A stretch of DNA of 64,000 nt from Polaromonas sp. (GCA_028291985.1 JAQGNE010000061.1:9713-73712); one strand, 5' to 3'. Positions 4,101 to 60,048 are shown, counted from the stretch's first letter. The notes: generated from the sequence alone by a model not told the origin. Numbers and translations are program-made.

Positions 4101-5279
4101 CATCTGTTCATGAACGTGCGTGTGGTGGATGACAATGGCCGGCAGATGGGCATGGGCCGCAACATTGGAGCGCTGAAGGCCGAACTGGGCACGCAGGCAA
4201 GAGGTGCATTCCAGGCGCTGGCCGTTTTGAAAGGCGCGACGCCGTCAGGGCCTGTTGATGCCGTCTCTGGTGAGCCAAGCAAGAAAAATGAATCAAATAG
4301 GCCTCTAGCCCAGAACCTGCGAGGGCTAGTAGCTCCTGAAATCGTAGCAAAATCAACATCTGGACCAGCGACCGTCAGCGTACCGAAAGCGCCCGCACGC
4401 TACACCAGCTGGGCCTTCGGGGAGCTGCCCGAACTGATGGAGATACGCAAGGGCAACCAGACGCTGATCGGGTTTCCAGCGCTGATCGACCTGGGATTAG
4501 AGGGTGGTGGCGCCGTCACCATTGAGGTGTTTGACGAGCCGGCGCTTGCCGCGCTGCGTCACCGTACAGGCTTGCGTCGGCTTTTTTCGCTTCAGATCAG
4601 GGAGACGTTGAAGCACCTGGAGAAAAACCTGCCAGAGCTGCAGAAAATGGCGACGCAGTTCATGCTGGTGGGACGCGGCCCGGACAACTCGGGCGGAGGA
4701 ACTCTGGAAGAGCTGCGGGCGCAGATCATCGAGGTCTCACTCGACCGCGCATTTTTAACCGATCCCCTGCCCAGCACTGAGGCCGAATTCAGCAAGCGTG
4801 TGGAAGACGGTCGCGCGCGGCTGACGCTGATCGCGCAGGAAGTGGCGCGTCTCGCGGCTGCGATCCTTGCCGAGCACGCCGTTGCCCAGCGCAAGATCAA
4901 GGAGACGCGTAACGCGGCAGAAGCAGTGACCGACACCGCGCAGCAACTGCAGCGGCTGGTGCCCAAGACATTTTTGACCGCCACGCCTTACGCCCAGCTC
5001 CAGCACTTTCCGCGCTACCTGAAAGCGATTACCTTGCGGCTGGAAAAATGGCGCAGCGACCCCGCCCGAGATACTGCACGCATGGCGGAGGTCAAACCCC
5101 AGGAGCAGCGTTACTGGCGTTTGTTTGCCGAACGCAAGGGCAGGGCAGACGCAAGGATGCAGGAATTTCGCTGGCTGCTGGAAGAACTGCGGGTCAGCCT
5201 CTTTGCGCAAGAGCTAAGGACCCCACAACCAGTTAGCCTGAAGCGACTGGACAAGGTCTGGGCGCAGCTGAGCAGCTAG
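1194..5279 (+). CDS. hrpA: ATP-dependent RNA helicase HrpA
   Basis: GETGSGKTTQLPK, HTQPRRIAA, DEAHERS, SAT, QRAGRCGR motifs; C-terminus ELRVSLFAQEL; 1361 aa. Confidence 0.97.
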   Translation: MKLRRRQPIIESFEPLSLSLQPQHPSSPSRFPSRPVIDFPESLPVSGKRDEITTAIQSHQVVIVCGETGSGKTTQLPKIALAMGRGKLNYPVGQRAKLIGHTQPRRIAASSVAKRIAEELKTPLGEVVGYKVRFQDRLSRDASVKLMTDGILLAETQTDPLLNAYDTLIIDEAHERSLNIDFLLGFVRQLLPRRPDLKVIITSATIDAQRFANYFESAKGPAPVIMVSGRMFPVEQRWRPFEESRDHDLNDAIADAVDELWASPHNAGDILVFLPGEREIREAADHLRKHLAHQPLNRHAEVLPLFARLSQAEQDRIFDGHSGRRVVLATNVAETSLTVPGIRFVIDAGTARVKRYSFRSKVEQLMVEPVSQAAANQRAGRCGRVADGICIRLYDEQDFAGRPRFTDPEILRSSLAAVILRMKALRLGAVEDFAFIEPPQRRAIADGYQLLAELGAVDEQNELTPVGTNLARLPLDPRIGRMILEARDRSSLDEVLVIASALSVQDVRDRPIDKQAQADQQHAKFDDEKSEFSSYLKLWKWLDVSRGGHGTEHKLSNRQYENLLRENYVNIRRVREWRDIHSQLHAVVGEQKWVLNDKPASYEQLHLSMLCGLLGNIGCKSEEAPSAPRPGAERTSSGQGEYLGARGIKFFPHPGAKLSKRPGRWIVAAELVETTRLFGRGIANIDPAWIEQVAGHLLKKQLLDPHWEKKAAQVTALERATLYGLTVYSGRRANFGRVDPAAAREVFIREALVAGNWDTRLPFLAANQKLVGSVQELEHKARRQDVLVDEELIYAFYDQHLPASICSGVGCESWYKEEARRQPKLLFMTQEELMRHEASGITSQAFPRTLRMGGVDCPVAYLHEPGDAKDGLTVDVPLFALNQVNEERCEWLVPGMLKDKVQALLKTLHQRPRSRLVPLPETAARMAEQLNQPQTFGTGSLTDALLKLVRDATSVDVKRGDIKLEMLPPHLFMNVRVVDDNGRQMGMGRNIGALKAELGTQARGAFQALAVLKGATPSGPVDAVSGEPSKKNESNRPLAQNLRGLVAPEIVAKSTSGPATVSVPKAPARYTSWAFGELPELMEIRKGNQTLIGFPALIDLGLEGGGAVTIEVFDEPALAALRHRTGLRRLFSLQIRETLKHLEKNLPELQKMATQFMLVGRGPDNSGGGTLEELRAQIIEVSLDRAFLTDPLPSTEAEFSKRVEDGRARLTLIAQEVARLAAAILAEHAVAQRKIKETRNAAEAVTDTAQQLQRLVPKTFLTATPYAQLQHFPRYLKAITLRLEKWRSDPARDTARMAEVKPQEQRYWRLFAERKGRADARMQEFRWLLEELRVSLFAQELRTPQPVSLKRLDKVWAQLSS
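4295..4349 (+). repeat. 55-bp double-dyad element, copy 1 (in frame within hrpA)
   Basis: AAATAGGCCTCTAGCCC-AGAACCTGCGA-GGGCTAG-TAGCTCCTGAAATCGTAGCA; perfect CTAGCCC/GGGCTAG stem. Confidence 0.85.
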
Positions 5280-20069: not shown

Positions 20070-20093
20070 CGGTCCACCTAATGAAATTTAAGT

Positions 20094-20148
20094 AAAAAAA
20101 GCTCCAGCCCATTGAACATAAGCGTTTATAGCTATCGATTAAGTAGCA
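20094..20148 (+). repeat. 55-bp double-dyad element, copy 2 (intergenic)
   Basis: AAAAAAAGCTCCAGCCC-ATTGAACATAA-GCGTTTA-TAGCTATCGATTAAGTAGCA. Confidence 0.8.
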
Positions 20149-25346: not shown

Positions 25347-25402
25347 TGCTATTAACATCATAGCTTACAGTCCATGTCTTATAAGGGCTGTAGCCCTACT
25401 TT
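25347..25402 (-). repeat. 55-bp double-dyad element, copy 3 (intergenic, convergent gap)
   Basis: Minus strand AAAGTAGGGCTACAGCCC-TTATAAGACAT-GGACTGT-AAGCTATGATGTTAATAGCA; stem ACAG/CTGT covaries with CTAG/CTAG of copy 1. Confidence 0.85.
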
Positions 25403-25451
25403 TCTTAAAAAACAACGTCAAGACTGTTTTTGGCGGCTCCGGCTTCCAAGC

Positions 25452-30429: not shown

Positions 30430-32034
30430 ATGAATCAGCCGCTTCTGGAGGTCAGCAACCTGCGCATTTCGTTTGCCGGAAAAGAGGTTGTTCACGGCAT
30501 TGATTTTTCAATCGCACCGGGCGAAAAGCTTGCGCTGGTCGGCGAGTCGGGGTCCGGAAAAACCGTCACGGCCTTAAGCCTGTTGCGGCTGGCGCAGGAT
30601 GCATCCGTCAGCGGAAGTGCGGTCTTTCAGGGTCAGGCCGGCCCGAGCGATTTGCTGGCTCTGTCGGAGCGCCAATTGCGCGGTATTCGCGGCCAGGACA
30701 TCTCGATGATTTTTCAGGAGCCGATGACGGCCCTGAATCCGCTGTTCAGCGTGGGTGATCAGATTGCCGAGGTTTTAGAGCTAAAAACAGGCCTAGCACG
30801 CATATCTGCTTGGAATGAAGCTATTGAATTGCTAGCAAGCACCGGTATTGCAGAACCCGCGCGGCGCGCGCGCTCGTTTCCGCATCAGCTCTCGGGCGGC
30901 CAACGCCAGCGCGCCATGATTGCGATGGCCCTGGCCTGCAAGCCCAGGCTGCTGCTGGCTGACGAGCCCACCACGGCGCTGGATGTCACCGTGCGGAGCC
31001 AGATCCTGGACGTGCTGGCCAACCTGCAGCGGCAAACCGGCATGGCGGTGTTGATGATCACGCATGACCTCAACCTGGTGCGCCGCTTTGCCACACGGGT
31101 GGCCGTGATGGAAAACGGCCATATCGTGGAGCAAGGAACGGTCGACGATGTCTTCCAGCGTCCGCAGCACGCCTACACACGCAAGCTGATCGACAGCACG
31201 CCAACCCGTGACGAGCATGAAGCCCGGCCTGACGCCTCGCTCCCGCCGGTGATGAAAGCCCGGGCGCTTCGCGTCAGCTATCCGGTACGTACGCCCGGCT
31301 TCAAAGGCTGGTTCAAGGCCGGGCAGTTTGTGGCGGTGCAGGATGCCAGCTTTGAGATTCCGGCTGGCCAAACGCTGGGCGTGATCGGCGAATCAGGCTC
31401 TGGCAAGTCCAGTCTTGCACTGGCGGCTTTGGGCTTGCATCCGCACAGCGGCCAGCTTGAAGTTGTCGGCAAGGGCTGGAGCGGCAGCACAGCCGCCAAC
31501 AAGGCCTTGCGACGCGCAGTGCAGGTGGTGTTTCAGGATCCCTTTTCATCGCTGTCGCCACGGATGACGATCGGTGAAATCGTCGGCGAGGGGCTTGATG
31601 TGCATCAGCCGGGGCTTTTGTCTGCCGAGCGCCGTCAGCGCGTCGTACGGGCGCTTTCCGATGTCGGCATGCATCAGACGCTCTTTCCTGGCCTGCTTCA
31701 ACGCTATCCGCATGAGTTTTCAGGCGGGCAGCGTCAGCGGATTGCGATTGCCAGAGCCTTGATCGTTGAACCTCAACTGCTGGTATTGGACGAACCCACC
31801 AGCGCACTTGACGTGACCATCCAAAAGCAGGTTCTGCAATTGCTGCAGCGCTTGCAACGGGAGCGCGGCCTGAGCTATCTGCTGATCACCCACGATGTCG
31901 ATGTGATTCGCGCCATGGCTCACCGGGTGCTGGTGATGAAAAGCGGCAAGGTCATAGAAAGCGGCACTGCGGCAGAGGTGCTGCGATCGCCGCAGCAGGC
32001 CTACACCCGTATCCTTGTGGCTGCTCCGGGCTGA
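30430..32034 (+). CDS. yejF: Peptide ABC transporter ATPase with two NBDs (YejF)
   Basis: Two Walker A (GESGSGKT, GESGSGKS), two LSGGQRQR/FSGGQRQR, two DEPT motifs. Confidence 0.93.
   Translation: MNQPLLEVSNLRISFAGKEVVHGIDFSIAPGEKLALVGESGSGKTVTALSLLRLAQDASVSGSAVFQGQAGPSDLLALSERQLRGIRGQDISMIFQEPMTALNPLFSVGDQIAEVLELKTGLARISAWNEAIELLASTGIAEPARRARSFPHQLSGGQRQRAMIAMALACKPRLLLADEPTTALDVTVRSQILDVLANLQRQTGMAVLMITHDLNLVRRFATRVAVMENGHIVEQGTVDDVFQRPQHAYTRKLIDSTPTRDEHEARPDASLPPVMKARALRVSYPVRTPGFKGWFKAGQFVAVQDASFEIPAGQTLGVIGESGSGKSSLALAALGLHPHSGQLEVVGKGWSGSTAANKALRRAVQVVFQDPFSSLSPRMTIGEIVGEGLDVHQPGLLSAERRQRVVRALSDVGMHQTLFPGLLQRYPHEFSGGQRQRIAIARALIVEPQLLVLDEPTSALDVTIQKQVLQLLQRLQRERGLSYLLITHDVDVIRAMAHRVLVMKSGKVIESGTAAEVLRSPQQAYTRILVAAPG
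30783..30837 (+). repeat. 55-bp double-dyad element, copy 4 (in frame within yejF, degenerate first stem)
   Basis: AAAAACAGGCCTAGCAC-GCATATCTGCT-TGGAATG-AAGCTATTGAATTGCTAGCA; local burst of A/T-ending codons. Confidence 0.65.
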
Positions 32035-34528: not shown

Positions 34529-37474
34529 ATGTCCAGTACCACTACCGTCGCTGAATTCGCAGCTGAACTGAATAAATCAACCAACACCCTGATCGAGCAA
34601 TTGACCAGTGCGGGGGTGGCCCAGGTGCAGGCGGGTGACCGCCTGTCCGAGGCCGACAAGCAAAAACTGCTGGGATATCTCCAGGCCAGCCATGGAACGG
34701 TTGCGCCCGAGCGCAAAAAGATCACGCTGGTCAAGAAATCCACTAGCGAGATCAAGCAGGCCGACTCCACCGGCAAGGCGCGCACGATCCAGGTCGAGGT
34801 GCGCAAAAAACGTACTTTTGTCAAACGCGACGACGGCTCGGATGGGTCGGTCGAAGACGTCCAGCCTGAACCGGCAGCCGCGCCTGCAGCGCCGGCTATC
34901 GACCGCGCTGAATTGTTGCGCCGCGAAGAAGAAGCCAACCGCCATGCCGAGCTGCTTCGCCGCCAGGAACAGGAGCTTTCTGAAAAGCGCCGTCTGCGCG
35001 AAGAGCACGACGCCCGCGAAACCGCACGTGAACAGGCCGAAGCTGCTGCTGCCGAAAAAGCGCAGGTAGAACAGAAGGCGATTGCGGACGCGGCGGCAAC
35101 AGCGGCCGCTGCTGCCGCATTGGCGGCTCCGGTTGTCAAGCCGACCATAGGGAAGATATTCAAGCCAGCGCCCGTCGTTGATGCAAAAGCGGTTCAGGCG
35201 GCCGAAGCTGCCGCCGCAGCGCAAGCCCAGAAAACCGCTGACGCTGCCACCGCACAAGCCGCAGCCCAGGTTGCAGCCAAGGCCAAGGCCACCGCCGAGT
35301 TTCAGGCTGATGCCGTAAAGGCGCAGGATTTGCAGGATCGTCGACGCAAGGCCGAGGCTGAAGCTGCTGGCATACGGGCGATGATGTCCGCGCCAAAACG
35401 TGTTTTGGTGCCGCATGTCGACCCGAAGGCTGCCATCAAGGGCACACTGCACAAGCCAGCGGTGGTTCCCGGCGCTATCAGGCCCGGAGCGGCGGGCGCT
35501 ACTGCAGCGGCACCAGGCGCTGCGGGCAAAAAAGAAGTCAAGTCGGAAAACCTGTCCTCGACCTGGAAAGATGACGCCGCCAAGAAGAAGGCGCTGCCCA
35601 CGCGTGGTGCAACAGCGACGCCCGGACGGGGCAACTTCCGGGGCGGCCCTCGTGGGCGCCGTACCAACGACCGCGATGCGCGCCCTGAATCCAGCTTTGT
35701 GGCGCCATCCGAGTTCAAGGTCATCGAGGTGCATGTGCCTGAAACCATCACGGTTTCGGAGCTGGCCCACAAGATGAGCGTGAAATCGTCAGAGGTTATC
35801 AAGCACCTGATGAAGCTCGGCCAGATGGTCACCATCAACCAGCCACTGGACCAGGACACCGCGATGATCGTGGTGGAAGAGATGGGTCACAAAGCAGTGA
35901 CGGCAGCGCTGGACGATCCGGAAGCCTTTACTGACGAAGACGTGCAGGGCGCACAGGCAGAAGCCCTGCCGCGCGCGCCGGTGGTGACCGTCATGGGCCA
36001 CGTCGACCACGGCAAAACCTCTTTGCTGGACTACATTCGCCGGGCCAAGGTGGCTTCGGGCGAGGCTGGCGGCATTACGCAGCACATCGGCGCCTATCAC
36101 GTCGAGACACCGCGCGGGATGGTGTCCTTTCTGGACACGCCGGGCCACGAAGCGTTTACCGCCATGCGTGCCCGCGGCGCGCAGGCCACCGACATCGTGA
36201 TTCTCGTGGTCGCGGCAGATGACGGCGTAATGCCGCAAACCCGCGAGGCGATCAAGCATGCCAAGGCGGCAGGCGTTCCGATCGTCGTTGCCATCAACAA
36301 GATAGACAAGCCCGGCGTCAACCTGGAGCGGATCAAGGGTGAACTGGTAACAGAGCAGGTGGTGCCTGAAGAATTCGGCGGTGATTCGCCTTTTGTACCA
36401 GTCTCCGCTCATACTGGCGCTGGCATCGACACACTGCTGGAGCAGGTCTTGCTGCAGGCTGAAATACTGGAACTTCGCGCTCCGGTTGATGCGCTGGCCA
36501 AGGGCCTGGTGATCGAGGCCCGGCTGGACAAGGGACGCGGTCCGGTTGCAACCGTGCTGGTGCAGTCCGGCACGCTGAAAGCAGGCGATGTGGTGCTCGC
36601 AGGATCGACTTATGGCCGCGTGCGCGCGATGCTGGACGAAAACGGCAAGCCGATCAAGACTGCAGGCCCGTCAATCCCGGTTGAAATCCAGGGTCTGACA
36701 GATGTTCCGCAAGCTGGTGACGACTTCATTGTCATGCTGGACGAGCGCCGCGCACGTGAGGTTGCCACTTACCGCGCGGGCAAGTTCCGCAATACCAAGC
36801 TGGCCAAGCAGCAGGCGTCCAAGCTGGAAAACATGTTTTCCGACATCAATGCCGGCGAGGTCAAGATGCTGCCGATCATCATCAAGGCCGATGTGCAGGG
36901 TTCGCAGGAAGCGCTGTCGCAGTCGCTGCTCAAGCTGTCGACCGAAGAGGTAAAAGTCCAGCTGGTCTACTCGGGCGTCGGCGGCATTTCCGAGTCCGAT
37001 GTCAACCTGGCTATTGCATCGAAGGCAGTTCTGATCGGCTTCAATACCCGTGCAGACGCTCAGGCGCGCAAGCAGGCTGAAAACAACGGCATTGACATTC
37101 GTTACTACAACATCATTTATGACGCTGTGGACGAACTCAAGGCTGCGATGTCGGGCATGCTGACGCCAGACAAGAAGGAAGAGATCATCGGCACAGCCGA
37201 AATTCGCACCATCTTCAAGGTCAGCAAGATTGGCTCGATTGCGGGTTGCATGGTCACGGCCGGCGTGGTTCGCCGCGCTGCACGCCTGCGCCTCCTGCGC
37301 CAGAACGTCGTGGTTTTCACCGGCGAACTCGATTCGCTCAAGCGCTTCAAGGACGATGTCCGCGAAGTGAAGGAAGGCTTCGAATGCGGTTTGAATATCA
37401 AGAACTACAACGACATCCACGAAGGTGATGTACTGGAATTCTTCGAGATCAAAGAGGTTGCACGTACGCTTTAA
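34529..37474 (+). CDS. infB: Translation initiation factor IF-2
   Basis: [43 protein letters not shown]. Confidence 0.98.
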
Positions 37475-37574
37475 AGAGCAGAGCTGAGCGGTGTGTTGCA
37501 GCGCAAGCCCTGGCCTGAAAAGGTCAGGCGCAGCGCCACCCACACCGTTTTTGCAACGCTTGCGATGTAATCCC

Positions 37575-37946
37575 ATGGCCAAAAAAAAATCTTCAACACC
37601 GAACCGCGGCTTTCGCGTTGCCGATCAGATCCAGCGTGATTTGACGGAGCTGATCGCACGCGAGCTGAAGGACCCCCGCGTGGGCATGGTCACTGTGCAA
37701 TCTGTCGAGGTGACTGCAGACTACGCCCATGCCAAGGTGTATTTCAGCGTGCTGGTGGGTGACCCGCAAGCCTGCGAGGAAGCACTCAACCAGGCGGCAG
37801 GGTTCTTGCGCAACGGCCTCTTCAAGCGGCTGATGACACACACCGTTCCAACCCTTCACTTTCATTTTGACCGCACCACCGAACGGGCGGCAGACATGAA
37901 TGCCTTGATCGCCAAGGCAGTTTCCTCCCGCGCTCAAGACGACTGA
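37575..37946 (+). CDS. rbfA: Ribosome-binding factor A
   Basis: [27 protein letters not shown]. Confidence 0.95.
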
Positions 37947-37949
37947 AGC

Positions 37950-38029
37950 GTACCGTTCCCCTTTGACAGGCTCGGGGTGAACGGTACCCCCTGCGAGCGG
38001 TGTGTCCGTTCGCGTTGAGCTTATCGAAA
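37950..38029. repeat. REP-like imperfect inverted repeat between rbfA and truB
   Basis: Arms CTTTGACAGGCTCGGGGTGAACGG (37961-37984) and CCGTTCGCGTTGAGCTTATCGAAA (38006-38029); alternative GTACCGTTC/GAACGGTAC stem. Confidence 0.7.
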
Positions 38030-38034
38030 CGCTT

Positions 38035-39063
38035 ATGCCGCCATCCACTGTTTCCCGCCAGAAAATTCAGCGACGTCCCGTTCACGGCGTGCTGCTGCTC
38101 GACAAGCCGCTGGGCTTATCGAGCAACCAGGCGCTGCAAAAGGCAAAGTGGCTGTTGCGCGCTGAAAAAGCTGGCCATACCGGCACGCTGGACCCGCTTG
38201 CAACCGGCGTGTTGCCGCTGTGTTTTGGAGCCGCCACGAAGTTCAGCCAGATGCAACTGGAGGCCGACAAGACCTATGAAGCCCTACTGATCCTGGGCGT
38301 TAAAACCACCACCGCTGACGCCGAGGGCGACGTGATCGAGAGGCGGGCAGTGCCGCCCATCACGCCGGAGTTGCTGGCGGATCTGACGCACCGTTTCACC
38401 GGCCCGCTGAAGCAGGTTCCGCCGATGTACTCCGCGCTGAAGAAGGACGGCAAGGCGCTGTACGAATATGCCAGGGCTGGCCGTGAAGTAGAGCGTGAGG
38501 CACGTCATATCACCGTTTTTAAGCTAAATATGACTTCAGCCCAGGATCCACTTGGGCTGGTAGCTATTAAAATCATAGTGTCATGTAGCAAGGGGACCTA
38601 TATCCGCACGCTCGGTGAAGACATCGGCGAGGCGATCGGTTGCGGCGCGCATTTGGGTTCGCTGCGCCGGATTGAAACCGGCGGCTTTACAGCCAGCCAG
38701 TGCATCAGCCTGGCCGCACTTGAAGCCATGACCGAAGCCGAACGCGATGCCCAGCTGCTACCGCCACAGTCACTGGTATCGGCTTTCCCGGTTGTCACAT
38801 TGGATGCCGACAATGCAGGACGTTTTTTAAGCGGGCTACGCCGCAGGGGCGAAGCCGGCCAGTTTGGCGACGATGCGCCACTGGTGCAGGTTTATGGCTC
38901 TGAGCCACGGGCGTTCCTGGGTTCAGCTCACATCACGGCCAATGAATTGATACCGCAACGTCTACTGAGCCCGGTTGAGGTGCAGGCGATCTGGCAGGCC
39001 GGCATGCAAAACATGCCGCCGGGCCTGCCCGTCTCGCATGCACAGCCCGCCTTGTCGGGCTAG
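38035..39063 (+). CDS. truB: tRNA pseudouridine(55) synthase
   Basis: GVLLLDKP, GHTGTLDPLATG, PMYSALK, CSKGTYIR. Confidence 0.96.
   Translation: MPPSTVSRQKIQRRPVHGVLLLDKPLGLSSNQALQKAKWLLRAEKAGHTGTLDPLATGVLPLCFGAATKFSQMQLEADKTYEALLILGVKTTTADAEGDVIERRAVPPITPELLADLTHRFTGPLKQVPPMYSALKKDGKALYEYARAGREVEREARHITVFKLNMTSAQDPLGLVAIKIIVSCSKGTYIRTLGEDIGEAIGCGAHLGSLRRIETGGFTASQCISLAALEAMTEAERDAQLLPPQSLVSAFPVVTLDADNAGRFLSGLRRRGEAGQFGDDAPLVQVYGSEPRAFLGSAHITANELIPQRLLSPVEVQAIWQAGMQNMPPGLPVSHAQPALSG
38526..38580 (+). repeat. 55-bp double-dyad element, copy 5 (in frame within truB)
   Basis: AAATATGACTTCAGCCC-AGGATCCACTT-GGGCTGG-TAGCTATTAAAATCATAGTG. Confidence 0.87.
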
Positions 39064-39144
39064 CACCGTCACTGTCGATCTTTTTCAGTTTTTATCTTTT
39101 CCCAGCTTCGAAGTTTTCCAGTTTCCAGTTCCAGAAAGCCAACC

Positions 39145-40968
39145 ATGAGTCACAAACAAATCCGCAATATTGCCATCATCGCCCACGTTGACCACGGCAA
39201 AACCACCATGGTTGACCAGCTCCTGCGCCAGTCCGGCACCTTTGCCGAGCACGAAAAAATGGTCGATACCGTGATGGACAACAACGCCATCGAAAAAGAG
39301 AGGGGCATCACCATCCTGGCCAAAAATTGCGCCGTAACCTGGGAAGGCACACACATCAACATCGTGGATACGCCTGGTCACGCCGACTTTGGCGGAGAGG
39401 TAGAGCGCGCACTGTCCATGGTTGACGGTGTTGTGCTGCTGATCGATGCCCAGGAAGGTCCAATGCCGCAAACCCGTTTTGTGACGAAAAAGGCGCTGGC
39501 TCTTGGTCTCAAGCCCATTCTGGTGGTCAACAAGGTCGACAAGCCCGGCGCTCGCCCTGATTACGTGGTCAATGCGGCCTTCGATCTGTTCGACAAGCTC
39601 GGCGCCACCGACGAACAGCTGGACTTTCCGGTCGTGTATGCATCCGGTATCAATGGCTGGTCTTCGCTGGAGGAGGGTCCGCCCAACGAACAGTGGGGCC
39701 CTGACATGTCGGCACTCTTCAACACCATCCTCAAGCATGTGCCTGCGCAAAAAGGTGATCCGGAAGCGCCTTTGCAGTTGCAGATATCCGCGCTGGACTT
39801 TTCAACCTTTGTGGGCCGTATCGGCGTGGGCCGCATCAGCCAGGGCACTATCAAACCGATGATGGACGTCGTGGTTATGGAAGGCCCGGACGGCAAGGCA
39901 GTGAAAGGCCGTATCAATCAGGTACTGACCTTTCAGGGCCTTGAGCGTGTACAAGCCACCGAGGCCGGCCCGGGCGAGATCGTACTGATCAACGGCCTCA
40001 CCGACATCGGCATCGGCGTCACCATCACCGACCCGATCAACCCAGCGCCGCTACCGATGCTGAAGGTTGATGAGCCAACCCTCACGATGAACTTTTGCGT
40101 CAACACCAGCCCGCTGGCTGGCCGTGAAGGCAAGTTCGTTACCAGCCGCCAGATCTGGGACCGTCTGCAAAAAGAGCTGCAGCACAACGTGGCGCTGCGG
40201 GTCAAGGAAACTGACGAGGAAGGTATTTTTGAAGTAATGGGCCGCGGCGAACTGCACCTGACCATTCTTCTCGAAAACATGCGCCGGGAAGGCTATGAGC
40301 TGGCGGTTTCCAAGCCCCGCGTGGTGATGAAGGACGTCAACGGTGAAAAGCATGAGCCTATTGAGCTCGTGACAGCCGACATCGAAGAGCAGCACCAGGG
40401 TGGCGTGATGCAGGCACTGGGCGAGCGCAAGGGCGACCTGAACAGCATGGAGCCGGACGGCCGTGGCCGGGTCCGGCTGGAGTACCGCATTCCTGCGCGG
40501 GGCCTGATCGGTTTCACCAACGAGTTTTTGAACCTGACGCGCGGCTCGGGGCTGATTTCCAACATCTTCGACAGCTATGAGCCGCACCGCGGCGAGATTG
40601 GTGGCCGCAAGAATGGTGTGCTGATCTCGATGGACGCTGGTGAAATTTTCACCTACGCCCTGGGCAAGCTCGACGACCGGGGCCGCATGTTCGTGCGCGC
40701 CAATGATCCGGTGTATGAGGGCATGATCGTCGGCATCCATTCACGGGACAACGATCTGGTGGTCAATGCCACGCGCACCAAGCAGCTTACCAACTTCCGC
40801 GTCAGTGGCAAGGAAGACGCGATCAAGATCACACCGCCTATCGAGCTGACGCTGGAATACGGTGTTGAGTTCATTGAGGACGACGAACTGGTCGAGATCA
40901 CGCCGAAATCGGTGCGGCTGCGCAAGCGCCATCTGACCGAAAGCGAGCGCAAGCGGGCAGGTCGCTAA
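39145..40968 (+). CDS. typA: Translational GTPase TypA/BipA
   Basis: [52 protein letters not shown]. Confidence 0.98.
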
Positions 40969-44383: not shown

Positions 44384-45576
44384 ACACATCCACTTTGCCT
44401 GGCGACAGGTCCGGTGCACCTGACGACATCACCGAGGTCATCGCGGAACGCCGCGGCAACGCCGGGCTGATCACCTTGAACCGGCCCAAGGCATTGAACG
44501 CCCTGAACCTGCCCATGATCCGGGCTCTCACGGCGACGCTCCTTGCATGGCGCGACGACGCTGCCGTGCAGCTGGTGGCGATTAGGGGCACCAACAAAGC
44601 GGGGCGACCTGGCACGCCGGACGCCCTGTTTGGTGGTTTTTGCGCCGGCGGAGACATTCGGTTTTTTCACCAGGCCGCACTGGCCAACGATGCACTGCTG
44701 GAAGCTTTTTTCACCGAAGAGTACACACTTAACTACCTCATACAAACCTACCCGAAGCCCTATATCGCCTTCATGGACGGCGTGGTGATGGGTGGCGGCA
44801 TGGGTTTATGCCAGGGCGAATCGCATTCGGCTCATCGTGCGGGCAAGGTCCGCATCGTGACCGAACACACCAAGATGGCGATGCCCGAAACCAATATCGG
44901 GCTTTTCCCGGATGTCGGCGGCGGTTATTTCTTGAGCCGCTGCCCGGGTCATGCGGGGGAATACCTTGCGCTGACGGGTGAGGCCATCGGCGCACAGGAC
45001 GCCATTGGTTTTGGACTCGCTGACGTCCAAAGACCCGCTGCCTCGCTGCCAGAACTGTGGGATAAGTTAGGTACTCACCGGACTGAGACACAAAATGCCG
45101 CAAACGCATGGGTTGCTACTGAATTCATAGCTGAAGCCCCTGGTACAACCAAGGACACCGGCACGATTGATCAATATTTTGGGCTTTTGCGAGTCAAGCA
45201 TATCGTTGACGCCCTTGAAAAGTCACCCGACCCGTGGGCCGTCAAGATGGGCGCGGTTTTACGCAAGCGCTCCCCGCTCATGCTGCACGTCGCGCTAGAG
45301 CAGATTCGCAGGGCGCGCGGCATGTCCCTGGCGGACAACCTGTGCATGGAGCGCAAGATGGTGCACCAGTGCTTTAACCTGCGCCCGGGAACAGCCAGCG
45401 AAACGGTCGAAGGTATCCGCGCACTGGCGGTTGACAAAGACTACACACCAAAGTGGTCCCCCGGACGTATCGAAGATGTCAAACCCGGCATGGCCGATGC
45501 GTTTTTCGCCAGTCCATGGGCACCCGATGCGCATCCCTTGAAAGACCTGCACGACCCGGGTCAGACGCGTCTATAA
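44380..45576 (+). CDS. 3-hydroxyisobutyryl-CoA hydrolase-like crotonase
   Basis: TLNRPKALNAL, FCAGGD, FFTEEY, GVVMGGGMG, AMPETNIGLFPDVGG, EGIRALAVDKD; GTG start overlapping the DMT stop. Confidence 0.9.
   Translation: MNTSTLPGDRSGAPDDITEVIAERRGNAGLITLNRPKALNALNLPMIRALTATLLAWRDDAAVQLVAIRGTNKAGRPGTPDALFGGFCAGGDIRFFHQAALANDALLEAFFTEEYTLNYLIQTYPKPYIAFMDGVVMGGGMGLCQGESHSAHRAGKVRIVTEHTKMAMPETNIGLFPDVGGGYFLSRCPGHAGEYLALTGEAIGAQDAIGFGLADVQRPAASLPELWDKLGTHRTETQNAANAWVATEFIAEAPGTTKDTGTIDQYFGLLRVKHIVDALEKSPDPWAVKMGAVLRKRSPLMLHVALEQIRRARGMSLADNLCMERKMVHQCFNLRPGTASETVEGIRALAVDKDYTPKWSPGRIEDVKPGMADAFFASPWAPDAHPLKDLHDPGQTRL
45114..45168 (-). repeat. 55-bp double-dyad element, copy 7 (antisense, inside the crotonase ORF)
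   Basis: Minus strand AATCGTGCCGGTGTCCT-TGGTTGTACCA-GGGGCTT-CAGCTATGAATTCAGTAGCA. Confidence 0.75.
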
Positions 45577-59905: not shown

Positions 59906-59960
59906 TGCTATGCATTAGATAGCTATAGGCCCTTGCGTTCAATGGGCTACAGCCACTTTT
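59906..59960 (-). repeat. 55-bp double-dyad element, copy 10 (intergenic, convergent gap)
   Basis: Minus strand AAAAGTGGCTGTAGCCC-ATTGAACGCAA-GGGCCTA-TAGCTATCTAATGCATAGCA. Confidence 0.87.
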
Positions 59961-60048
59961 TCTGTAAATTTCATCGGTATGGATCGTCAGCCGGGGTTAG
60001 CGGTCGACATCATCCGGTCTGCTGCGCTGTCCGCAGGCGAGATGGCGA

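Follow-up and report, generated by a model that had tools for sequence, protein, structure and literature searches.

A dispersed repeat of about 63 nucleotides in Comamonadaceae probably encodes the β-hairpin preceding the CSKGTYIR motif of TruB and appears to have been rewritten in place

The DNA analysed here is a stretch of 64,000 nucleotides (nt) from Polaromonas sp. (JAQGNE010000061.1, positions 9713–73712; hereafter the window, numbered from its first letter), which contains an intact truB gene for tRNA pseudouridine-55 synthase. The truB product is similar to E. coli TruB over its full length, including the catalytic Asp motif and CSKGTYIR (4e-67 to 1R3F/1K8W, the match with 1R3F spanning residues 7–310), and the Pfam domains on record for the protein are PF01509, PF16198 and PF09157. 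Codons 38524–38580 are translated as LNMTSAQDPLGLVAIKIIV, followed by S-CSKGTYIR. They lie within an in-frame copy of an interspersed element of about 63 nt, which encodes (V)FKLNMTSAQDPLGLVAIKIIV, the entire β-hairpin (residues 162–182) ahead of that motif. Our main reading, to which we assign a probability of about 0.65, is that this segment is a genuine, translated copy of an element found across the Comamonadaceae, that it overwrote a native hairpin, and that it is kept uniform by rewriting in place. The coordinates of all features are collected in Table 1.

The truB copy ranks eighth among 342 matches to a profile built from eight other genomic copies, from which it had itself been left out (48.5 bits, E 2e-12). 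With the family-wide iterated profile it scores 37.3 bits (E 7.8e-9), among 452 matches. It carries the conserved blocks of the family in order (AAGCTAAATATGACTTCAGCCCAGG..CTTGGGCTGGTAGCTATTAAAATCATAGT, against the consensus blocks AAGC/AAA/GGC, TAGCCC, a lineage-variable "dialect" block, AGCTAT and ATAG(C)); the final C of the consensus is a T here because the codon at this point is GTG. The segment is the local minimum of GC content in truB (0.40, compared with about 0.6), and its codons include CTA, AAT, ATT, AAA and ATA. A first-pass annotation made from this DNA alone had described a translated repeat with rare A/T-ending codons directly before SCSKGTYIR, which is borne out, and had placed its start at 38526, 2 nt away from a codon boundary.

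The segment folds with z = −2.9 relative to shuffled sequences. Stem 1 (38536–38545 with 38551–38560) has 10 pairs, two of them G·U or G·T, and stem 2 (38563–38567 with 38575–38579) has 5 pairs, one of them G·U or G·T. The earlier description of both stems as intact at the DNA level is therefore only approximately right, since both contain wobble pairs; as evidence, stem integrity carries little weight, since the family as a whole lacks covariation of the paired positions. A 12-nt patch (38551–38562), which completes stem 1, differs from the congeners in 7 of 11 bases, so that PLGLVA is encoded where they have PRAQAA. Only one of the 120 closest TruB homologues, that of this genome, contains DPLGLVA, and the profile score of this copy is the highest among all orthologous truB copies.

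Alignment with E. coli TruB (1R3F, 1K8W) opens a four-residue gap in the E. coli protein at the hairpin, where this genome has ITVFKLNMTSAQDPLGLVAIKIIVSCSKG; the hairpin has 17 residues in E. coli and 21 here, as stated in the first-pass annotation. AlphaFold2 (AF2), run with 45 close homologues as input, predicts strands at residues 158–170 and 176–184, joined by DPLGL, with block values of the predicted local distance difference test (pLDDT) of 91, 83 and 73; the global model was poor (mean pLDDT 56), and the hairpin region alone was used. By alignment, AIKIIV would occupy the position of the LELEI strand of E. coli TruB, in agreement with the predicted strands and with the earlier proposal that AIKIIV is a structural β strand leading into CSKG. 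Alignment and model together support the view that the element copy encodes both strands of the putative hairpin, including the AIKIIV strand. The element peptide, with its alternating hydrophobic strands (xLNMxxAQ ... AIKIIV), evidently sits in the place of the native hairpin, with the rest of the enzyme intact.

The genome searched comprises 3.58 Mb in 94 contigs and belongs to a Polaromonas-like member of the Comamonadaceae, judging by the names of the closest TruB homologues. Exact and three-mismatch pattern searches and direct-repeat finding within the window revealed no second copy of the truB segment; the family became visible only by whole-genome BLAST followed by profiles. A 70-mer search against the own genome gave 27 weak collinear matches, whose flanks reveal a sharply bounded family. 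Two iterations of the family profile yielded 452 matches at E≤0.01 and 414 at E≤1e-3, or about 450 copies of about 63 nt, one in roughly every 8 kb. They share the consensus AAGCaAAAtAGGCCTCTAGCCCAAtaaATACAAGGGCTTGTAGCTATtaAtt.aATAGCAaa, with flanks that carry no information, and the conserved blocks read AAGC-AAA-GGCC-TAGCCC ... dialect block-AGCTAT ... ATAGCA; within this one genome, invariant blocks adjoin hypervariable loops. Of 352 copies, 63 (18%) have GTAG just before the dyad, the rest having ATAG, GCAG, TTAG or others there. Rfam gave no match within 37000–40000 of the window, and literature searches by taxon, repeat terms and sequence strings found no description of this Comamonadaceae family in the library searched.

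Genes were called with a crude method based on open reading frames (ORFs) and codon usage. By these calls, the 414 copies at E≤1e-3 divide into 260 intergenic copies, 55 that overlap gene ends and 99 wholly inside ORFs, the genic share being about 22%, or about a fifth. Intergenic copies are found mostly downstream of genes, occupying 23% of the gaps between convergent genes, 10% of those between tandem genes and 7% of those between divergent genes. Among 93 copies well inside ORFs, the commonest reading is one sense frame (45 copies; ..AQ...G.VAI.SIA), followed by one antisense frame (35 copies; AI.SIA..P...RA.G.F) and a second sense frame (7 copies), a usage consistent with avoidance of the TAG and TAA triplets of the element. 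The hosts are ordinary housekeeping proteins and include HrpA, PurL, PutA (3 copies), ProA (2 copies), NadE, UvrD, CobN, TamB, DnaX, RarA, PCC-alpha and GluQRS. PutA (C59:4991–8227) and ProA (C77:7061–8353) thus contain 2 or 3 copies per gene in differing frames and orientations; in PutA, each of the three frame classes is represented once.

A selected RNA structure was considered as an explanation of the repeat and dropped, as neither column-wise covariation nor the folding of real copies against inter-copy chimeras gave a sign of selected pairing: counts at paired columns equal expectation, and real copies fold no better than chimeras. Inverted doublets of the kind formed by repetitive extragenic palindromic (REP) sequences, known as REPINs, are absent, with only 2 pairs of copies lying within 300 nt of each other. 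The strong strand polarity that transposition of the IS200/IS605 type leads one to expect is also missing: the orientation of the copies relative to GC skew is only weakly biased (odds ratio 2.2, p 0.006), about as much as that of the genes.

The truB site is widely shared. The segment is equally long in all 120 of the closest TruB proteins and usually reads KLNMALAQDPRAQAAIKIIVSCSKG, and the truB DNA of congeners stays element-like (GCAGCTATCAAAATAATAGTG and similar), scoring 10–30 bits compared with 48.5 here; the scores of the orthologous copies form a continuum. We surveyed truB in 127 genomes of the family and neighbouring families. The distance from the YEYAR anchor to CSKG is 37 residues (a 17-residue hairpin) in other families and in the more divergent half of this one, and 41 residues (a 21-residue hairpin) in one large Comamonadaceae-type clade. 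The hairpin DNA of this clade is AT-rich and of the element type in 38 genomes (GCTATYAAAATNATAGT) and GC-rich in 34. Element-type hairpins with an even more complete 3' end (..GTAGCAAAA) occur in yet another group of genera. In that group, VSKGTYIR replaces CSKGTYIR (L060, L064, L065, L069, L075, L090, L095, L116, L122 and L158), and several of its genera have the complete ATAGCA end of the element (AIKIVA-T-VSKG).

A FastTree gene tree of TruB, built with the hairpin columns removed, places 17-residue hairpins in the outgroups and in clade A, and 21-residue hairpins in clade B (support 97). The basal rows of clade B (L139, L140, L087, L144) and a sub-clade of 14 genomes (B1) have hairpins of the form LELLxxQLxGxAPFLRLRV. 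These share the register APFL.L.V with the 17-residue outgroups L040 (LLELISYEAPFLTLNVR) and L046 (..ESPFLKVVV), and their DNA does not resemble the element, with which it is about 33% identical when compared codon by codon. The element-type rows all fall within two groups, the Polaromonas clade and a clade of 39 genomes (B3). The most economical reading of this distribution is that the native hairpin grew from 17 to 21 residues first and that the element overwrote it later, at unchanged length. In the ancestor of a large sub-clade, to judge by the alignments, the element evidently replaced a native hairpin of 21 residues with a net change of 0. The event in truB is evidently old, since 38 sampled genomes have the element at the same site. 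The first-pass annotation was thus correct in proposing that native core sequence had been replaced. The net gain of about 12 nt that it cited does not hold, the relevant gain being 0 because native hairpins of the same clade already have 21 residues, and the change is not an event of this genome, given a copy that is orthologous across many genera and repeatedly rewritten.

Several GC-rich forms (ALRAIV, AIRVIV, AVKIRV and AIKMRV, with GCGATCAAGATGCGCGTC) are nested among the element-type rows and look like ameliorated copies. Element-free relatives with a GC-rich segment of 21 residues, which the first-pass annotation had regarded as a sign of convergence, do exist (the ALRAIV hairpin of L035 and the APFLRLRV clade); these are either ameliorated derivatives or the native precursor and give no sign of convergence. 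Two genera have longer hairpins of 32 (L106, genome G062) and 29 residues (L112, genome G140), in which native strand 1 is kept and followed by a full element in the same 3' register; these copies seem to have arisen independently, with another left boundary. The congener row L027 (G016) has one TGA and one TAG inside its truB match and may represent a pseudogene or an assembly error. TruB of L039 (G013, assigned to the same genus by GTDB) is only 63% identical to the protein studied here and groups with the APFLRLRV sub-clade instead of Polaromonas, which suggests bin contamination or horizontal replacement of truB.

Codon usage in the hairpin was compared among the 38 element-type orthologues, for which GCTAY at codons −7 and −6 had been the sole selection criterion. 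The fraction of G or C at third positions (GC3) is 0.45 in the hairpin and 0.79 in the rest of the gene. Lys −5 is encoded by AAA in all 29 cases, whereas AAG is used for 71% of Lys +2; Ile −3 is always ATA (21 of 21) and Asn −19 always AAT (20 of 20). The truB copy is evidently no decaying relic, its AT-rich and locally rare codons having been kept as DNA across genera.

Counts of an element pattern in 80 genomes (246 matches here, compared with 3 for a reversed control) range from 486 (G087), 330 (G115), 296 (G157) and 214 (G006) through 161 (G096), 160 (G098), 131 (G045) and 125 (G092) to the background level in many genera. A congener, G001, has one match genome-wide, and its truB hairpin is of the GC-rich ALRAIV form. 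In G001 the family has apparently been lost, and the truB segment evidently drifted to GC-rich synonymous or conservative codons at the same length. Where the family is abundant, the central block differs by genus: ..ACTGCTCAAGCAGCTA in G087, ..ATATCGCGGGAGCAGCTA in G115, ..ATATGCGCGAGCAGCTA in G096, ..GAATATGCGT...CAGCTA in G064 and ..ACAAGGGCTTGTAGCTA in this genome. Genus profiles were made without the truB copies, and the truB copy scores highest on that of its own genus in G087 (22.4 bits, compared with at most 9.3), G115 (29.0, at most 6.8) and G096 (11.6, compared with 4.7); the G064 copy has its own dialect, CCCGCnGAATATGCGT..CAGCTAT, matched by eye. The copy of this genome fits the Polaromonas profiles at 11.2 and 5.0 bits. 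Since truB carries the genus-specific central block in at least four genera, its copy has evidently been rewritten in place several times. The congener G006 shares orthologous intergenic and genic copies with this genome that differ in the dialect block; at 70–80% nucleotide identity, this comparison is too distant to reveal gain or loss events.

The effect of the element on protein length was measured against solved homologues of the host proteins, each copy encoding 16–20 residues. The net change is +4 residues in TruB, +11 in PurL, +4 and 0 in ProA, 0, +13 and +1 in PutA, +3 in NadE, −3 in RarA and +2 in PCC-alpha, and about +40 around the copy in GluQRS. Eight of 12 genic copies are within ±4 residues of the solved homologues, among them the top-scoring ones (PCC-alpha, 44 bits, +2; RarA, 39 bits, −3; PutA, 33 bits, 0). 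Length-neutral overwriting thus appears to be the rule for the family, and therefore speaks against insertion followed by trimming.

Such a classical event, comparable to those of Rickettsia palindromic elements (RPEs) or miniature inverted-repeat transposable elements, would have been a clean insertion of about 63 nt into the hairpin, trimmed by later deletions, with the likeness between genera explained by descent and purifying selection on the peptide. Rickettsia RPEs and GTAG/CGTC REPs are documented cases of in-frame repeats that arose by insertion (PMC3733652), L106 and L112 retain native strand 1 beside a full element (+11 and +8 residues), and PurL, PutA and GluQRS show net gains. We nevertheless regard this explanation as improbable: the best-scoring genic copies are length-neutral, the exact exchange of 21 for 21 residues in truB needs two precisely compensating deletions, and selection on the peptide cannot explain synonymous AAA, ATA and AAT codons or genus-specific dialect blocks in truB. 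That the hairpin was itself the progenitor, a 63-nt piece of truB having been captured and amplified, would account for the unchanged length of truB and for the match between the length of the element and 21 hairpin codons, and few copies are as widely shared as the one in truB. This idea is very improbable, as native APFLRLRV hairpins have no DNA similarity to the element, length-neutral copies occur in other genes too, other copies contain no truB-flanking sequence, and dialect information flows from the family to truB and not in reverse. The probability of chance or convergence, by which hairpin codons merely resemble the repeat, or of an assembly artefact is negligible. The missing second copy in exact-pattern searches of the window and the 94 contigs of the assembly might have pointed that way; the profile score obtained without the truB copy, the AT-rich rare codons in a gene of high GC3, and the recurrence of the feature in dozens of independently assembled genomes, complete ones included, refute it for practical purposes.

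A drive resembling that of uptake sequences is unlikely in our estimate. Here a long recognition signal would accrue in place by point mutation and biased transmission, as in the uptake signal sequences (USS) and DNA uptake sequences (DUS); genic copies would arise by codon choice, and all sites would follow a change in receptor specificity. Genic copies with no length change fit this scheme, some of them at sites where the native peptide is already element-like (ProA copy 2 is identical to Burkholderia ProA in 10 of 20 residues, and PutA has AIESIAKTA where the homologue has AIETIGKAA), as do the genus dialects at orthologous sites, the invariant blocks beside hypervariable loops within one genome, the lack of stem covariation and the continuum of profile scores in truB. 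However, no known uptake sequence comes near the length of the element (more than 60 nt, more than 40 bits), USS and DUS are more densely spaced, and the clustered change of 7 of 11 nt in this genome resembles a templated patch more than independent point changes.

For the preferred reading, overwriting followed by rewriting in place, the following mechanism may be considered. The element would act as a recognition sequence at the DNA level and would be held uniform within a genome by rewriting in place, either through templated patch conversion from other copies, possibly with a conserved single-copy HUH/Y1 protein similar to the REP-associated tyrosine transposases (RAYTs) or to TIRYT proteins, or through a molecular drive like that of uptake sequences. 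Cut-and-paste insertion would probably not be the mode of spread, and reading frames may be limited only by the stop codons of the element. We hold tentatively, at somewhat less than even odds, the more specific proposal of a long recognition signal rewritten in place, in which single-stranded element DNA, excised or copied and perhaps made by the conserved Y1/HUH protein, or an uptake-type drive converts resident and look-alike sites to the current dialect of the genus. If this is true, a DNA dialect that holds throughout the genome, rather than the history of the proteins, would set the amino-acid sequence of a core hairpin of TruB and of segments of dozens of other housekeeping proteins.

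The own genome has one gene with the Y1/HUH domain PF01797 (C48:33982–34683), and a copy of the family lies 125 nt upstream of it. Its orthologues in other genera stand between inverted repeats that are conserved across genera (AATTGGGGTCAGATTCCAATTA / TAATTGGAATCTGACCC). These terminal inverted repeats (TIRs), of the GGGGTCAG type, fit GGGGWSAS, the consensus given for TIRYT genes (PMC3733652). A partial element with the genus dialect lies between the Y1 stop codon and the right TIR in at least five genera (G157, G087, G055, G047 and G064), which is suggestive of a functional link; since element copies generally persist at orthologous sites, it does not prove one independently. Single-copy orthologues of the gene occur in 76 of 80 genomes of the family, element-free ones included, so that its presence or absence does not separate element-rich from element-free genomes. 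The arrangement, examined at the own-genome locus (C48:33760–34800, outside the window) and at loci L201–L220, resembles a TIRYT "TIRtron"; the left repeat is degenerate in this genome, and the orthologue in G023 contains an in-frame TAG.

Several observations weigh against the preferred reading. The mode of rewriting is something that we infer, and the closest genome available, with TruB 87% identical, is too distant to catch an event. Dialect tracking fails in G157 and G006, whose truB copies score poorly on their own profiles. The FastTree gene tree contains polytomies and does not resolve B1 as basal to the element-type clades. Length was gained in the truB hairpins of L106 and L112 and around the GluQRS copy. 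The Y1 gene is present in element-free genomes, and the partial copy on its 3' side may simply be another orthologous copy that has been conserved. Finally, gene calling was crude and the overall AF2 model poor.

The window contains further copies of the family (Table 1), in frame within hrpA, antisense and in frame within a crotonase-like gene, and in intergenic positions. A segment of YejF (30783–30837; ELKTGLARISAWNEAIELLAS; TTTTAGAGCTAAAAACAGGCCTAGC...GAAGCTATTGAATTGCTAGCAAG) is element-like by eye and gave no nhmmer match even at E 100.

Table 1. Features of the window: the truB locus and other copies of the element family.
Feature	Position	Strand	Evidence and remarks
truB (tRNA pseudouridine-55 synthase), 342 residues, intact, HTGTLDPLATG catalytic motif present	38035..39063	+	ORF, translation
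In-frame copy of the ~63-nt interspersed element, whole β-hairpin	38517..38580	+	nhmmer, model positions 1–63
5' conserved block AAGC-AAAT-..-CAGCCCAGG, holds the 5' arm of stem 1, encodes strand 1 (KLNMTSAQ)	38521..38545	+	Consensus, per-position information content, fold
Patch CTTGGGCTGGTA, rewritten in this lineage (CGAGCGCAAGCA or similar in congeners), 3' arm of stem 1	38551..38562	+	Congener DNA
3' dyad block GCTATTAAAATCATAGT (stem 2), encodes the predicted AIKIIV strand into CSKG	38563..38579	+	GCT..AGC invariant in family
CSKGTYIR motif of TruB, separated from the 3' end of the element by one Ser codon	38584..38607	+	Translation; invariant in 45 homologues
Family copy in frame inside hrpA (SNRPLAQNLRGLVAPEIVA)	4293..4348	+	nhmmer E 6.6e-10
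Intergenic family copy	20087..20147	+	nhmmer E 9.4e-9
Intergenic family copy	25348..25410	-	nhmmer; orthologous copy in G006 (alignment)
Family copy, antisense, in frame inside crotonase-like gene	45115..45164	-	nhmmer E 5.7e-4; same site and same length in congener G006, gapless alignment
Intergenic family copy just past a stop codon	52607..52664	+	nhmmer E 1.3e-10; orthologous copy in G006 with the G006 dialect-block variant
Intergenic family copy	59907..59968	-	nhmmer E 1.4e-10

Translated bacterial repeats are known and have been treated as surface insertions. Here, a repeat would encode both strands of a core hairpin adjoining a conserved motif of a conserved enzyme, and the hairpin appears to be rewritten, with no change in length, in step with the repeat family in several genera. 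The truB gene thus offers a clean, alignable and experimentally tractable case of how a dispersed repeat family stays uniform, one that bears on the choice between a RAYT-like protein and an uptake-type drive and on how much protein sequence a DNA-level signal may dictate.

The closest parallel in coding sequence is provided by the RPEs (RPE-1 and relatives), reportedly described by Ogata et al. in 2000. Compared by description, both are short interspersed repeats translated in frame inside functional housekeeping genes. The first-pass annotation had drawn this comparison, and in-frame translation supports it, whereas clean insertion of the RPE type is not seen here. RPEs are described as insertions that add residues, while copies of the Comamonadaceae element are mostly length-neutral overwrites, and the truB copy adds 4 residues relative to E. 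coli and 0 relative to native hairpins of the same clade. The element also differs in its lack of stem covariation, its orthologous sites across genera and its genus dialects. The truB gene of R. conorii itself hosts RPE-1 (PMC3733652). REPs are found inside genes in several taxa as well, including truB of S. maltophilia, E. litoralis and S. alaskensis, and GTAG-tagged REPs were surveyed by Di Nocera et al. 2013 (PMC3733652). The S. maltophilia REP lies at residues 10–16, a different site from that of the Comamonadaceae element.

The element resembles the REP sequences, their bacterial interspersed mosaic elements (BIMEs) and the REPIN-RAYT systems in its high copy number, in its mostly extragenic location downstream of genes with some copies within ORFs, and in the single-copy Y1/HUH gene with TIRs. 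It differs in that the GTAG tag is present in 18% of copies only, inverted doublets are absent, the second dyad is AT-rich and about one fifth of the copies are intragenic, and in that the Y1 gene also occurs in element-free genomes. The USS of Pasteurellaceae and the DUS "dialects" of Neisseriaceae are DNA uptake sequences with a core of 9–12 bp and a density of about 1 per kb. Like these, the Comamonadaceae element has copies within genes that leave the length of the coding sequence as it was and favour certain frames, dialects that vary by lineage at orthologous positions, and blocks that are conserved as sequence and not as structure; it is five times longer and sparser (about 63 nt, about 1 per 8 kb), and its changes are clustered and patch-like.

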